Positions 1 through 15,146 of a stretch of DNA of 64,000 nt are shown one piece after another. The stretch lies in contig CAZTEX010000010.1 in assembly GCA_964612505.1 (NCBI GenBank), positions 2,274 through 66,273 on the forward strand, read 5' to 3'. The stretch comes from an uncultured bacterium. GTDB lineage: Bacteria; Chlamydiota; Chlamydiia; Chlamydiales; JAAZZY01. Each line of letters starts with the position of its first letter. Within the stretch, counting starts at the first letter, position 1. Below the pieces are notes generated by a model. That model was not told where the DNA came from and searched no databases. It saw nothing but the letters and a program-made list of their open reading frames with translations. The position numbers and the translations under genes are program-made.

Positions 1-1200
1 GCGGTTCTCGATTGTGTAACAGGGGCTGGGGCCGTCATTAGAGGGCATTCACATAATGATGTCATTACAAATGTGTTAATGACGCATATGCCTAAACACT
101 CATATTGGGAAGAACTGCAACAAAAATTTATGAGTTTAATACCATTTACTCATTTTTTCCCTGCAGTGAGTGGAGCTAGCGCTGTTGACATAGGACTCAA
201 TTTAGCATTAGCTACCATCGGCAAAAAAAAAATCATTGTTTTCAAAGGTAATTATGCTGGAAAAACATTATGTTCATTAATTGGCACTTCAGATGAAAAC
301 TATAGAAAACACTTTGGACCCTTATTTCAAGAAATAGTTTATATCGATCCATTATCTAAGGAGGCTGCTGCTACCTTGTATGAGGCTATTGCCACATCTG
401 AAGTGGGTCTTATTTGGTTTGAATTACTCCAAGGATCAACTTTACATGAGATTCCCGCTGAATTGATTTCTATCATCAATCACAACAAACCAATCTATGA
501 GTATTTGATTGGCATCGATGAAATATTAACAGGAATTTACAGATTGGGCAAACTTTTCTCTTGTCAGGGTGTCATTGATGATCCAGATATCATTACAGCT
601 TCAAAGGGTTTATGTGATGGCACATTTCCTTTTGGGATTACGATTGTGTCTGATAGTTTATATAAGAAAGTATATGAAAAAAACCAACCTTTAGTACAGT
701 ATTATCAGGGTTTGTATACCAATCAATTAGGTTCTCATATTGCCTTAAATTGTTTGAATTATTTTTGCCAAGAAGCAGTAGTTAATCAAATTCAATGTGT
801 TGGGAATAAACTTGAGATGGCCTTCAGTAAATTTCCACAAATTTCACCATATGTCGAAAAAGTATTAGGTAAGGGTCATATTTATATTATTAAATACAAA
901 AAATCTATTTGGACCTTTGGGTCAGCGGGAATGTTATTTTTTGATTTGTTTATGTTTAAGCAAGGTATAGATAAGGAAAAGATATTCTTGTTTTTTAATC
1001 GCTGCATTCCCTCTTTGATCATGACCAATGAAGAGGCAGAAATACTCATTAATAAACTAGAGAACCTACTAGTCAGAAACAGAGTCCTTTTATACATTCG
1101 ATTCCATTTTTTTTGTTTGAATACAATTGTTTTATTGGCTGTTTTAAAAATTAGAAATGTCCTTTATAGTCTCTTTGATAAACTTGTTGTTAGATCTTGA
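1..1200 (+). CDS. Class III PLP-dependent aminotransferase, 5' end outside the window (possibly the C-terminal domain of a larger protein)
   Basis: Frame is open from base 1 (AVLDCVTGAGAVIRGHS, the LD-x2-x-G-x-G-x4-GH N-terminal motif), so the 73 start is not the true start. Also contains FKGNYAG, IDEILTGIYRLG and the PLP lysine in TASKGL. Confidence 0.85.
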   Translation, partial: AVLDCVTGAGAVIRGHSHNDVITNVLMTHMPKHSYWEELQQKFMSLIPFTHFFPAVSGASAVDIGLNLALATIGKKKIIVFKGNYAGKTLCSLIGTSDENYRKHFGPLFQEIVYIDPLSKEAAATLYEAIATSEVGLIWFELLQGSTLHEIPAELISIINHNKPIYEYLIGIDEILTGIYRLGKLFSCQGVIDDPDIITASKGLCDGTFPFGITIVSDSLYKKVYEKNQPLVQYYQGLYTNQLGSHIALNCLNYFCQEAVVNQIQCVGNKLEMAFSKFPQISPYVEKVLGKGHIYIIKYKKSIWTFGSAGMLFFDLFMFKQGIDKEKIFLFFNRCIPSLIMTNEEAEILINKLENLLVRNRVLLYIRFHFFCLNTIVLLAVLKIRNVLYSLFDKLVVRS

Positions 1201-1226
1201 AACATCCCAAGTGATTGTGATCCTTT

Positions 1227-4200
1227 ATGAGTATCAAATATGAAAATTTGGTTGATTTGGCGATCTTTTATGCTAAAACTATCCCTGAAAAAAAAGCATA
1301 CATTGCATTGAGTGATGGTGAGATAGAGTCAGGTTCCCTCACTTATGGAGAGCTGCATGAGAAAGCAGCAGCAATTGCTAGCTATTTACAATCTTTAAAT
1401 TTAAAGGGAGAACGCGCATTACTTGTTTTTCCTGCTGGTCTGGATTTTGTTACAGCATTTTTTGGGTGTCTTTATGGAGGAATGATTGGTGTACCTATCT
1501 ATTTGCCTTTTTCTAAACCAGACGATTTTAAAAATAAGATCAATACCATTATAAGCAATGCTCAACCAAAGATCATTTTAACCACGAAAGAATATTCTAC
1601 ACTATTTGAAAAATTTCGATCTGAGTCGCCCATACTCACCAGCATGAATGTGATCAACACGAGTTCACTTTTATCAGAGTGGTTATCGAGTATGTGGCAA
1701 AGGAAAAATATTTCTCCGCAGGATCTGGCATTTTTACAATATACTTCAGGTTCTACTAGATCTCCCAAAGGGGTGATGGTTACTCACAATAACATTATTC
1801 ATAATTCAGAAGTGATCAAAACAGCTTATCAGCATTCTGAAAAAACCATAGTCTTGAGTTGGCTGCCCCATTATCACGATATGGGCTTAATTGGCCCCAT
1901 AGTACAAGCTTTATATGTGGGTGGCACAGCTATACTCATGGCTCCAATGGCATTTTTGCAACAGCCTATAAGATGGCTGAAAGCCATATCGAAATATGGA
2001 GCGCATACAAGTGGCGCCCCCAATTTTGCATATGAGCTATGTTCGACTCAAATTAACGAAATTGAAAAGTCAAGTTTAGATTTGAAAACTTGGACTATAG
2101 CCTATAATGGCTCTGAACCTATTCGTCAATCTACCCTAGAAAAATTTGCATCTGCTTTTGCATGTTGTGGATTTCGCAAAGAGGCCTTTTACCCCTGTTA
2201 TGGTTTGGCCGAATCTACTTTATTTGTAACAGGAAGCTCAAGATTAAAAGGTTATGAAACAAAAACATTAGACATTAAGGAATTGGAGAAAAATCGCGTA
2301 AAGTATTCCCTAGAGATGGATAAAAGTTGTCGCACTTTCGTAAGTAGTGGGTGTGCTTGGATTGATCAACAAATTGTGATTGTCAATTCTGAAACCTTGC
2401 TTCCATGTGAATCGCATCAGGTAGGTGAAGTATGGGTGAAAAGCCAAAGTATTGCAAAAGGGTATTGGATGAATCCAGAGGCTTCAGTCGAAACCTTTGA
2501 AGCCTATATTGCTAAAACTCATGAAGGGCCATTTCTACGAACAGGAGATTTAGGGTTTGTCGATGAAGGTCAGTTGTATCTCACTGGTCGCCTTAAAGAA
2601 GTGATTATTATTCGAGGATCAAACTATTACCCACAAGATATTGAACAGAGTGTGCAGAATGCTCATGCCGCTTTTGCACCAGGGACTGGGGCTGCATTTT
2701 CCGTCACTATGGATGAAGAAGAGAAACTAGTCTTTGTTCAAGAAATTCTGCGTACTCATCTGCGTAATTTTGACTCTAATAGCGCCATTGCAACTATTCG
2801 CCGTGTAATATCAGAATTGCATGGTATTGAAGTGCATGCCATTGTATTAATCAAGCCTAGCACTCTTCCAAGAACTTCAAGTGGCAAAATTCAACGACTT
2901 AAAGCAAAGAACTTCTTTCTTGGCAATGAGTTGCAAAAAGTTACAGAGTGGGTTCAACCCAATCGTAGCCTCAGCGAAAGCAACAAAAAATTTGAATTTC
3001 CGGTAAATCAATCTAACGTCTATGACGTATTAATAGCTAAATTGGCGGAAAAAGTAAATCTTCCTATTCCAAAAATCGACTGTCATCTCCCATTTTCGTT
3101 TTATGGATTAGATTCAGCCAAAGCCGTTGCAATTTCAGGTGAACTCGAAAAAATATTTCAACGATCCTTGCCACCAACCCTCCTTTATGAGTATCCCACT
3201 ATCCATGCTTTAGCTCAGTTTTTTACAGAGAACCACATCACTTTAAAAGCTACGCCAAATCAGAAACACATCAATCATGACCCTATTGCAATTATTGGAA
3301 TGGGGCTTCGATTTCCACAAGCAAATAGTCCAGAGTCTTTATGGGCATTGCTGCAGAAGGGATGCGATACGATTACAAAAGCCCTTATCTCTCGAACGGG
3401 CGAATCTATTCCCTCGTGTGAGCATTGGGGAGGATTTCTATCTTCAGTAGATTTGTTTGATGCGGAATTTTTTTCGATATCCCCTCGAGAAGCCAATCAC
3501 ATGGATCCTCAGCAGCGCTTACTTTTAGAGGTTGCTTGGGAAGCTCTAGAAAATGCAAATATTACCCCAAGCAAAATTCGGGGGACTGAAACAGGTGTGT
3601 ATCTTGGGTTAAGTTCGAATGATTATGGACTACTTCAATTGGGAAATCCAAGCAATGTCTCACCATATTCAGCTACAGGAAGCGCTTTAAGTGTTGCGGC
3701 GAATCGGTTATCATATTTTTTAGGTCTGCATGGCCCTAGTTTAGTTGTTGATACAGCCTGCTCCTCATCACTAGTCTCTCTCCACTTAGCTTGTAGTAGC
3801 CTACAACAAAGAGAAATTGATCTTGCTCTTGTAGGTGGAGCAAACCTCATATTATCTTCTCAAGTGACCTCCGGCTTACAACAAGCTGGTATGTTAGCAA
3901 AAGATGGGCGTTGTAAAACATTCGATGCTTCTGCTGATGGGTACGTTCGAGGAGAGGGATGCGGTATCGTCGTCCTCAAACGTTTATCTGATGCAATAGC
4001 TGATAAAGATTGTATTTCTGCTGTCATCCTAGGATCAGCTGTAAACCAAGATGGTTTAAGTAATGGCTTAACAGCTCCCAATGGTTTTGCACAACGCAGG
4101 GTCATTCAACAAGCATTATCTCGCGCAGGGGTTGCTCCAGAAGATGTCAGCTATATAGAAGCACATGGTACTGGCACTTCTTTAGGTGACCCTATTGAAG

Positions 4201-14190: not shown

Positions 14191-14210
14191 AAATATTAAA
14201 TGAGGCATAA

Positions 14211-15146
14211 ATGAGTATTAAAATTAAGCAGTTTAAAAGTATTTTAAATATTCTTTTGTCCAAAGAATACGTTAATTTTATTCTTAATAGTTTTGTTCGT
14301 TCTGCTGGGTTAAGTAAAGATAAAATAGGGGATTATACTCTATTAGGAGATGACGTAGTGCCTGGCTTGAATGGAAAATTTAAAGACCCCAATAAGTCTT
14401 TGTGGTTTAATTTGGGGTATTGGAAAGATGCAAAAACTTACCCTGATGCTTGTGCAGCTTTAGCAAGATATGTTGGGCAAAAAGCCTGTTTGAAAGCTCA
14501 AGATGAAGTTTTAGATGTTGGATTTGGTTATGCAGAACAAGATATACTTTGGCATAATGAATTTGGTGTCCAAAAAATTGTTGGAGTTAATATCACCCAA
14601 ATGCAAGTTGAAGTTGCTAAAAAGCGCATTCAAAAACTAAACCTTTCCGACAAAATAGAATTACATGTTGGTTCAGCTACAGACTTAACCTTTGCAGATA
14701 ATTCATTTGATAAAATAATTGCACTTGATTGCGCCTATCATTTTAATACTAGAGAAAAGTTTCTTAATAAAGCCTTTCAACTTCTAAAGAAGGATGGAAT
14801 ATTAGTTACTACGGATGTGCTACCTCAATCTCAAACAAGCTTTAAAGGATTATTGAAAAGAATTAATAGAAAGATAATGCAAATTCCAGAAGCAAATATG
14901 TACGACAAAGAGGAGTATATAAAAAAATTAGAAAACATAGGTTTCAATAATATTGAATTTTCATCGATTAAGAATTATGTTTTCCCAGGAATGTTTAAAT
15001 ATACTGCACAAAGATCTGCTGGCAAAAAACTAGAAGAAGCAACCATTGAACTATCCCCTAAAGATATTAATGATTGCGCGGGGATAGAGCTTTGGCAAAA
15101 CTCTGGGATAGGGGATTACGTTGTTTTTGTAGCACAAAAAACTTAA
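14211..15146 (+). CDS. Class I SAM-dependent methyltransferase, McyJ-like polyketide O-methyltransferase
   Basis: NLGYW, VLDVGFGYAEQDILW, GSAT, FDKIIALDCAYHFNTRE; this motif set resembles cyanobacterial McyJ as I recall it. Confidence 0.8.
   Translation: MSIKIKQFKSILNILLSKEYVNFILNSFVRSAGLSKDKIGDYTLLGDDVVPGLNGKFKDPNKSLWFNLGYWKDAKTYPDACAALARYVGQKACLKAQDEVLDVGFGYAEQDILWHNEFGVQKIVGVNITQMQVEVAKKRIQKLNLSDKIELHVGSATDLTFADNSFDKIIALDCAYHFNTREKFLNKAFQLLKKDGILVTTDVLPQSQTSFKGLLKRINRKIMQIPEANMYDKEEYIKKLENIGFNNIEFSSIKNYVFPGMFKYTAQRSAGKKLEEATIELSPKDINDCAGIELWQNSGIGDYVVFVAQKT

Follow-up and report, generated by a model that had tools for sequence, protein, structure and literature searches.

Several biosynthetic systems convert a carrier-bound thioester to an aldehyde and then to an amine. 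In the coelimycin CpkC/CpkG-type system this is done by a thioester reductase of a polyketide synthase (PKS) together with an omega-transaminase, and in tambjamine biosynthesis by TamA/TamH, where the route starts from a fatty acid activated by an adenylating enzyme; these actinomycete systems are PKS-only or consist of two genes. In myxochelin biosynthesis, the reductase is the last domain of a nonribosomal peptide synthetase (NRPS). A gene cluster for which a related route is proposed, likewise from an activated fatty acid, is described here from an uncultured bacterium of the phylum Chlamydiota (GenBank assembly GCA_964612505.1). The stretch of DNA that was analysed, called the window below, comprises 64,000 nucleotides of contig CAZTEX010000010.1 (C10:2274-66273; C10 is 80.6 kb long). 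Its first 15,146 nucleotides carry an aminotransferase, two PKSs, a phosphopantetheinyl transferase (PPTase) and a methyltransferase (MT), and a second part of the cluster lies on contig C7 (86 kb). The best explanation, and in our view a probable one, is that a single operon encodes a hybrid assembly line which converts a fatty acid into a lipopeptide with a reduced, aminated C-terminus.

The proposed release resembles that of myxochelin, in which the NRPS-terminal thioester reductase of MxcG yields an aldehyde that is transaminated by a separate class III aminotransferase, MxcL, as is predicted here. MxcG was also the best named NCBIfam match of the reductase (R) region (7.8e-66; 222 bits against a cut-off of 2300). 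However, the fatty acyl-AMP ligase (FAAL), the PKS modules, the crotonyl-CoA carboxylase/reductase (CCR) and the methyltransferase are found only in the present system, and its aminotransferase is a two-domain protein of 718 aa. The prodigiosin enzyme PigE (PDB 4PPM) is likewise long, its catalytic domain being preceded by an N-terminal extension, but its partners PigD and PigB have no counterpart here, and the expected substrate is a peptidyl aldehyde instead of the 3-acetyloctanal used by PigE. Unlike in the CpkC/CpkG and TamA/TamH systems, the R domain is carried by an NRPS that follows three PKS modules. The polyketide part is similar to FAAL-primed lipopeptide clusters of cyanobacteria and myxobacteria that combine NRPSs with PKSs having acyltransferases in line (cis-AT; apratoxin AprB-type, curacin-type docking), with which it shares CurL-like linkers, helical docking ends and the grouping of its first ketosynthase (KS1). 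The identity to those clusters is at most about 50%, though; the gene combination is matched in no listed relative, and the host here is an obligate intracellular chlamydia.

The extent of the cluster became apparent when its domains were searched against the whole genome with tblastn, which gave one further PKS region, at the start of C7 and running off the contig end. Across the two contigs the order is flavin monooxygenase (FMO), CCR, PKS3, NRPS, aminotransferase, PKS1, PKS2, PPTase and MT, with approximately 27.4 kb assembled. CCR and PKS3, and likewise PKS3 and the NRPS, overlap by 4 nt. An open reading frame (ORF) running off the start of C10, which encodes the end of a peptidyl carrier protein (PCP) and the R domain, overlaps the start of the aminotransferase by 32 nt. 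The complete aminotransferase ORF (C10:1317-3473, 718 aa) begins 957 nt 5' of the window. The cluster genes within the window are all on the + strand, with spacers of 27 (aminotransferase to PKS1), 2, 101 and 20 nt, and have no internal stop codons. Because the genes overlap or sit this close together, they are taken to form one hybrid FAAL-PKS-NRPS operon, about 30 kb long and divided between the ends of two contigs of this genome. A first-pass annotation, made from the letters of the window alone, had taken the window genes to be the cluster; the genes were all there, but the window holds only the middle and the end, and the cluster runs off the contig in the 5' direction. The Logan contigs that carry either part of the cluster come together from at least 12 runs (SRR13444000-064, SRR31221252), the longest being 53.6 kb for the C10 part and 25 kb for the C7 part. 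The aminotransferase and PKS3 proteins were each found exactly in many independent Logan assemblies, the same 2211-aa PKS1 protein was called in them, and the gene order of the metagenome-assembled genome (MAG) is shared.

The junction between C7 and C10 falls within the NRPS. Logan contig L040 (SRR13444056) matches C10 perfectly over 3500 nt and extends 1206 nt past its start, and the last 53 nt of C7 are exact in it. Upstream of this 53-nt stretch, L040 carries a different core of the adenylation (A) domain, with 68% nucleotide identity over an overlap of about 600 nt and less in the core itself. Contigs of other runs start at one of two places, either this 53-nt point or a position inside the PCP that is also the start of C10. 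These two branch points bracket about 650 nt and fit a repeat, made of the C-terminal part of A and half of the PCP, that is common to two NRPS modules. The identical flanks around differing A cores would be explained either by two NRPS modules with a shared repeat or by a strain-level swap of A specificity. A one-module NRPS, joined through 606 bp of L040 to give an open frame of 1522 aa with condensation (C), A, PCP and R domains, was rejected as probably chimeric, given that the A core of L040 differs upstream of the 53 nt. As a query this frame gave generic NRPSs only, and the full-coverage matches were two-module NRPSs ending in R (approximately 2500-2600 aa). Two chlamydial genomes, G206 and G159, encode a KS followed by an acyl carrier protein (ACP) together with an NRPS of the architecture C-A-PCP-C-A-PCP-R. 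On account of the branch points, this architecture and the full-coverage matches, two NRPS modules are favoured with fair confidence, in which case roughly 2 kb would be missing from the MAG.

Domains in the window were called by Pfam and NCBIfam scans (Pfam E-values from 1e-14 to 1e-96), and the motifs were checked by hand (Table 1). The adenylating domain of PKS1 scored 415 and 397 bits with the fatty-acid--AMP ligase models and 370 bits with FadD32, compared with 293 bits for long-chain-fatty-acid--CoA ligase, all under the whole-protein cut-offs because it is a domain of a larger protein. As the FAAL models outscore the acyl-CoA ligase model and an ACP follows, the start of PKS1 is assigned as a FAAL-ACP loading didomain. 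The Cys-His-His triad is kept in all three KS domains, including KS3 (DTTCSS/HGTGT/NIGH), as in a modular cis-AT PKS. The carrier serine is kept in GLDSA, GMDSI, GLDSL and GISSL, and the cluster has its own PPTase (HetI model 6e-39, which is under the cut-off of that model). The dehydratase (DH) of module 2 retains its catalytic His in LKDHRLFNTIVVP, with Asn where Gly is usual, as well as DSCFQ. An in-line acyltransferase (AT) with GHSxG was found in modules 1 (GHSLG) and 3 (GHSTG) and is lacking in module 2, where GNGIGE replaces GHSxGE and about 73 residues, including the HAFH region, are gone in the alignment with AT1 and AT3. From its sequence, this AT0 is judged to be dead and incapable of acting as an acyltransferase, and the cluster contains no free-standing AT. 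Because AT0 is dead, the extender of module 2 would have to be loaded in trans. These results bear out the first-pass annotation in its list of intact, co-oriented genes and domains, in the fatty-acid priming by FAAL, in the A-type ketoreductase (KR) of module 1 and the B-type KR of module 2, both evident from their motifs, and in the degenerate AT0. The hydroxyl and the E-alkene which it had expected from modules 1 and 2 are likewise what an A-type KR1 and a B-type KR2 with a motif-bearing DH would be predicted to give.

Table 1. Features of the cluster. Positions are those of the window unless contig C7 is named.
Feature	Position	Strand	Basis
Aminotransferase, C-terminal 399 aa of a 718-aa class III (PigE-like) protein	1-1200	+	Pfam Aminotran_3; gene cut by window start
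PKS1, 2211 aa, loading didomain and module 1 (FAAL-ACP-KS-AT-KR-ACP)	1227-7862	+	Pfam, NCBIfam
FAAL-type adenylation domain	1284-2939	+	AMP-binding 2.3e-59; AMP-dom_DIP2-like
Loading ACP (GLDSA)	3006-3248	+	PP-binding, ACP_SdgA_C
KS1 (DTACSS, HGTGT, NMGH)	3279-4370	+	Pfam, motifs
AT1, malonyl-type (GHSLG, HAFH)	4842-5765	+	Pfam, motifs
KR1, A-type (SVWG before YAAAN, no LDD; TGGLGALG present)	6651-7193	+	Pfam, motifs
ACP1 (GMDSI)	7503-7703	+	Pfam, motif
PKS2, 1814 aa, module 2 (KS-AT0-DH-KR-ACP)	7865-13309	+	Pfam, NCBIfam
KS2 (DTACSS, HGTGT, NIGH)	7985-9112	+	Pfam, motifs
AT0, degenerate AT of module 2	9584-9985	+	Pfam, covering profile positions 2-133 of 319 only
DH2 (HPLL, LKDHRLFNTIVVP, DSCFQ)	10478-11359	+	PKS_DH_N, PS-DH, motifs
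KR2, B-type (LQD, YSAAN, no Trp)	12134-12670	+	Pfam, motifs
ACP2 (GLDSL), then C-terminal docking helix	12974-13171	+	Pfam, motif
PPTase, Sfp/HetI-type 4'-phosphopantetheinyl transferase	13411-14190	+	ACPS, AASDHPPT_N
S-adenosylmethionine-dependent MT, last cluster gene	14211-15146	+	Pfam methyltransferase families
FMO, class B, 472 aa	contig C7		Domain scan; weak Lys/Orn oxygenase match
CCR, 410 aa	contig C7		TIGR01751, 463.4 bits against 378.55, residues 17-409
PKS3, 1559 aa, KS-AT-KR-ACP (AT3 motifs GHSTG, QAGH)	contig C7		
NRPS start, first 871 aa: TubC-like docking domain, C (HHIALD), most of A	contig C7, end		

The R domain scored above the cut-off of TIGR01746 (268.4 bits against 213.35), matched NAD_binding_4 at 4e-59 and carries GSTGYVG and YSASK; with its NAD(P)H motif and Tyr-x3-Lys, it is assigned as a terminal R domain of the short-chain dehydrogenase/reductase type. 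The aminotransferase has the lysine for pyridoxal phosphate (PLP) in ASKGL and the Asp in DEILTG, and PigE (4PPM) was its best solved match by both sequence and fold. Against the PigE equivalog (NF053554) it reached 111 bits, with a cut-off of 850, and through the catalytic domain only, which leaves it outside that family; by analogy, it may work like PigE without being an ortholog. The N-terminal 300 residues, encoded 5' of the window at C10:1317-2270, are conserved across the family of long aminotransferases (for example, HSSTYGGN) and show weak similarity to class III aminotransferases. In the AlphaFold model (pLDDT 85.8) about the same 300 aa repeat the alpha/beta pattern of the catalytic domain and, judged by eye, have no PLP lysine at the matching position, which suggests a degenerate second aminotransferase domain that could serve as a built-in pseudo-partner. 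At the C-terminus of the protein there is also a long hydrophobic helix, possibly a membrane anchor.

The long aminotransferase lies directly 3' of an R domain in the present genome and in L051, L048, L049 (Methylovulum psychrotolerans), L059 (Aquimarina aquimarini) and L060, and near one in the chlamydial G206 and G159, so that an R domain was present in eight of the nine contexts. L060 is a PKS-free cluster, consisting of C-A-PCP-R and the aminotransferase. That the pairing with R recurs, even in this PKS-free cluster, argues for the R-derived aldehyde as the substrate of the aminotransferase, rather than a beta-keto polyketide intermediate. At the gene level, then, the PLP lysine and the coupling to the R domain identify a predicted reductase and transaminase pair. 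In P0004 and P0007 the long aminotransferase carries an MT domain at its C-terminus, and the MT of the window is 46-48% identical to this domain. Such aminotransferase-MT fusions, of 1026-1035 aa, lie inside large NRPS/PKS clusters of other bacteria (L058, ENA ERZ25073488; L048, SRR19627612). Among the solved relatives of the MT are MitM and the phosphoethanolamine, pavine and sarcosine N-methyltransferases. On the simplest reading, the MT is probably an N-methyltransferase whose substrate is the newly formed amine, and the likely release route runs from thioester to aldehyde, amine and N-methyl amine.

Taking the domain content, motif integrity, gene linkage and phylum as observed, we infer the substrates, module order, post-release steps and biological role along the following lines. 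The PPTase would convert the carrier domains to their active form, and the FAAL would adenylate a free fatty acid and load it onto its own ACP. Module 1 would add malonate, and its A-type KR would reduce the ketone to a hydroxyl, giving a 3-hydroxyacyl chain. Module 2 would add a C2 unit from an extender supplied in trans by AT1, AT3 or FabD, with the B-type KR and DH giving an E-2-enoyl unit. In module 3, on PKS3, the extender would be picked by the unusual AT3 (GHSTG, QAGH) and may be an alkylmalonyl unit supplied by the CCR, leaving a 2-alkyl branch; the KR of this module would leave a 3-hydroxy group, which would here be an allylic alcohol. PKS3 would then pass the chain to the NRPS through the TubC-like dock, and one amino acid, more probably two, would be added. 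The terminal R domain would release the chain as an aldehyde, the PigE-like aminotransferase would turn this into a primary amine, the MT would methylate the amine, and the class B FMO may oxygenate the product. As for the order of the proteins, the C-terminal helical docking tails of PKS1 and PKS2 are alike (…LSEQDAASLLLNKLE… and …LSNDEIKKLLLEKLK), PKS2 and PKS3 begin with matching coiled-coil heads, and the end of PKS3 differs and precedes the TubC-type dock of the NRPS. The order PKS1, PKS2, PKS3, NRPS is proposed because no other linear arrangement is compatible with the loading domain, with the two matching pairs of PKS docking ends and with the NRPS dock. From these steps, a lipopeptide with hydroxyl groups, unsaturation and a cationic, perhaps N-methylated C-terminus is predicted. 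The first-pass annotation had proposed a modified lipid or lipopolyketide; its lipid-primed polyketide part stands, whereas a two-module lipid does not, now that PKS3 and an NRPS have been found in a hybrid operon. Because the aminotransferase pairs with R and the MT with the aminotransferase, the product is better described as a polyketide-extended lipopeptide whose C-terminus would be reduced, aminated and probably N-methylated.

The closest relatives of the cluster proteins in a large protein collection were metagenome proteins (71% and 66% identity for the aminotransferase, 70% for PKS1). An orthologous cluster, L050 (ENA ERZ27336832, GC content 0.41), keeps the order aminotransferase, PKS1, PKS2, PPTase, MT at 60-72% identity, as well as all catalytic and docking motifs, including those of DH2. 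Its AT2 is also dead (GEGVGE) and has a larger deletion, with 39% identity in the AT region compared with 81% in the KS, and its module 1 is without KR. Named homologs of PKS1 are at most 50% identical and mostly cyanobacterial or myxobacterial (Moorena, Nostoc, Kalymmatonema, Archangium and Cystobacter, 39-49%). A search of genome contigs with PKS1, leaving out its own genome, gave no close relative, the best match being 40% in an Actinomycetota MAG. In a FastTree phylogeny of KS domains, for which the taxa were drawn from the best matches and are hence a biased sample, KS1 clusters with domains located after FAAL-ACP (support 0.92), KS2 and KS3 fall together with elongation KS domains of the cis-AT type (0.97), and most of the other KS domains from chlamydial hybrids are found in a clade of their own (0.97). 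Such a tree is consistent with horizontal acquisition and a long subsequent residence.

Within the phylum, comparisons were made with 400 sampled Chlamydiota genomes, the present genome (G000) included, and kinship was taken from GTDB. Type I KS matches at E <= 1e-50 were found in 42 of the 400, G000 being counted and none being in Chlamydia, with best identities of 43-51%. The long aminotransferase was found only in G206 (34%) and G159 (30%), which belong to another family. These two share R and the long aminotransferase with the present cluster but are without FAAL-PKS1, PKS2 and PKS3. The G206 cluster (C4:46000-63000; L024/L025) also encodes an ornithine cyclodeaminase, a 471-aa protein, an agmatine-deiminase-like protein and an ABC exporter, beside its KS-ACP, NRPS and long aminotransferase. 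An ABC exporter at 17839-19695 of the window has only generic likeness to the G206 exporter (32% identity, mostly in the ATPase part). The family mates G189, G184 and G365 carry different FAAL-primed NRPS/PKS hybrids; FAAL priming is thus common to G189 and the present cluster, whereas the architecture of G189 is FAAL-C-A-KS-KR-KS-C-A. A hybrid of these family mates, with PPTase, FAAL, C-A, KS-KR, KS and C-A (L052, which is G189:C1:2000-19000; L054, L056), was not found in the present genome. In the one genus mate sampled (G093), neither a PKS match nor a long aminotransferase was found, and a protein of the C7 flank also had no match there.

The MAG comprises 1.86 Mb in 31 contigs and is estimated to be 97.8% complete with 0.58% contamination. 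It belongs to Chlamydiota, being placed by markers with Chlamydia and carrying four nucleotide transporters of the TLC type found in energy parasites. Genus g9 of the same order, with sampled genomes of 1.0-1.2 Mb in 1-10 contigs, is identified as Chlamydia because its members carry MOMP (three of three sampled, 702-762 bits) and OmcB (two of two tested). In G000 itself, MOMP, OmcB and Hc1 gave no Pfam match, and the 16S rRNA was not assembled. The histone-like Hc1 was dropped as a phylum marker, having no match in G000 and a Pfam model that also matches Bacteroides. In tetranucleotide distance from the genome mean, both cluster pieces rank at the 98th-99th percentile, and in the 13 kb downstream of the cluster a single short DNA-level match was obtained among relatives; with the lack of matches in the genus mate, this gives the cluster the look of an accessory island within the reduced genome of an intracellular bacterium. 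An empty site in the genus mate could not be defined; DNA-level alignment was obtained at the cyo and ABC-F regions only.

Certain observations weigh against the proposed pathway or parts of it. The 10 kb upstream of the aminotransferase in L058 showed no R domain, and in G206 two other genes stand between the R domain and the aminotransferase. The solved relatives of the MT also include O-methyltransferases and cyclopropane synthases, and hence O- or C-methylation is possible. The NRPS is not assembled across the C7/C10 junction, which leaves the two-module reading no more than a probable one. The hand-derived specificity codes, D-V-T-F-I-A-Y-V-Y for A1 and D-M-A-F-M-G-Y-I-Y for A2, match none known to us. 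No substrate is assigned to AT3, whose QAGH resembles the TAGH motif of ethylmalonyl ATs.

Apart from these points, other functions were considered for the same genes. The aminotransferase could act in line on a beta-keto intermediate in the manner of iturin, mycosubtilin or puwainaphycin, with R releasing an aldehyde or alcohol. The ortholog L050, which without KR in module 1 would leave a beta-keto group next to the fatty chain, points in this direction, and FAAL-ACP-KS followed by an aminotransferase is the logic of known beta-amino lipopeptides. In the present cluster, however, KR1 is intact (TGGLGALG, YAAAN), and the aminotransferase is a free-standing protein, translationally coupled to the R-domain gene, and not an in-line domain. 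The same aminotransferase family moreover follows R in NRPS-only clusters without PKS (L049, L060), and a beta-amino product is considered improbable. A lipid-tailed metallophore or siderophore, with the FMO as N-hydroxylase, appears similarly hard to credit. It would agree with the TonB-dependent receptor and PepSY genes adjoining the R-aminotransferase pairs of the distant relatives L049 and L060, with the siderophore made by MxcG, with the weak Lys/Orn oxygenase match of the FMO and with a ZnuA-type ABC system about 5.5 kb past the FMO end of the cluster on C7. Nevertheless, the cluster is without catechol, hydroxamate-acylating or thiazoline/oxazoline chemistry and without a receptor gene, and its polyketide part would yield hydroxyl and alkene groups only.

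Two further alternatives are that the cluster no longer forms a product and that it does not belong to this organism. Decay is suggested by AT2, which is dead and still eroding, and by the reduced genome of the organism; but about 27 kb of assembled ORFs are without stop codon or frameshift, the other catalytic motifs are all intact, an ortholog about 70% identical has the same motifs and docking ends, and a dedicated PPTase has been retained, so that a relic is very unlikely. That an error of binning or assembly brought in the PKS genes of a different member of the sample (a cyanobacterium or myxobacterium, for instance) is extremely improbable, even though the tetranucleotide distances are high, the cluster sits at two contig ends, the genus mate has no match and the KS domains group with cyanobacterial and deltaproteobacterial cis-AT KS domains and not with most other chlamydial ones. 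Both contigs are long, and further along C10 there are a cyo oxidase operon and an ABC-F gene with 70-73% nucleotide identity to genomes of its own genus and family. The GC content of the cluster (0.355-0.36) is close to that of the large contigs (0.36-0.38), the contamination estimate is low, and identical gene linkages recur in the independent Logan assemblies. The higher GC content of L050 is also as expected if the cluster adapts to each host genome. With the placement in the order of Chlamydia and these flanking genes, the claim of the first-pass annotation that the cluster is owned by a chlamydial genome holds.

As regards the surroundings of the cluster, scans for terminators and promoters gave sites no more frequent than expected by chance. 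A thioredoxin reductase and a thioredoxin follow directly at 15268-17008. They are a second copy, with others on C15 and C6; the window TrxB is 41% and 40% identical to these, and only 42-47% to the one TrxB that each searched relative has. Because the gene after the MT is on the other strand in the ortholog L050, the pair probably does not belong to the cluster. The cyo genes of the window (34843-39344), conserved in relatives as given above, form a cytochrome bo3-type quinol oxidase operon with CyoB above its equivalog cut-off. Co-oriented ORFs at 51568-56276, including bioA (above cut-off), may be a biotin synthesis operon. Elsewhere in the bin, the small contigs C22, C28, C29 and C31 differ from the large ones in GC content (0.42-0.51) and are far from the mean in tetranucleotide distance; contamination, mobile DNA or rRNA fragments could account for them.

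FAAL priming, cis-AT modules with curacin-type docking, CCR-supplied extenders, reductive release from an NRPS and reductase-transaminase pairs (MxcG/MxcL, CpkC/CpkG, TamH, PigE-like) each have precedent, and to our knowledge no secondary metabolite of Chlamydiota has been isolated or structure-solved. Secondary-metabolite gene clusters are reported to be widespread in Chlamydiae (PMC9666466; also PMC13229535), and FAAL-containing clusters were shown there in a 2026 survey (PMC12820801, Fig. S18); the evidence on such metabolites in Chlamydiota has so far been genomic (PMC9666466; PMC12820801; PMC13229535). The novelty claimed in the first-pass annotation is therefore narrower than it was put: with the best named relatives at 50% or less, there is no near-identical characterised cluster, but clusters of this kind, including FAAL-containing ones, had already been reported in the phylum, and 42 of the 400 genomes carry a type I KS. 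What is new is this combination of genes, its completeness and apparent integrity in a 1.86-Mb intracellular genome, and the absence of a characterised relative.

Across at least three phyla, the long PigE-like aminotransferase with its two domains recurs as a partner of terminal thioester-reductase domains, and this recurrence, together with the MT fusions, offers a genome-mining handle for amine-ended products. A nearly complete, intact assembly line with readable logic is also a practical candidate for heterologous expression or for liquid chromatography-mass spectrometry of host material. For the organism itself, the presence of such an island in so reduced an intracellular genome suggests a role in host association, though a host-directed product is speculation. 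In its most specific form, the product would be a cationic amino-lipid resembling a sphingoid base (E-alkene, allylic alcohol, amine head), the first chlamydial polyketide-peptide natural product, and would be used on the eukaryotic host; this is regarded as unlikely. If it were true, the compound would not be aimed at bacteria and would alter host membranes or lipid traffic, or defend the host as the product of a symbiont, and the approximately 1.6% of the 1.86-Mb genome given to the cluster would reflect strong selection by host association.

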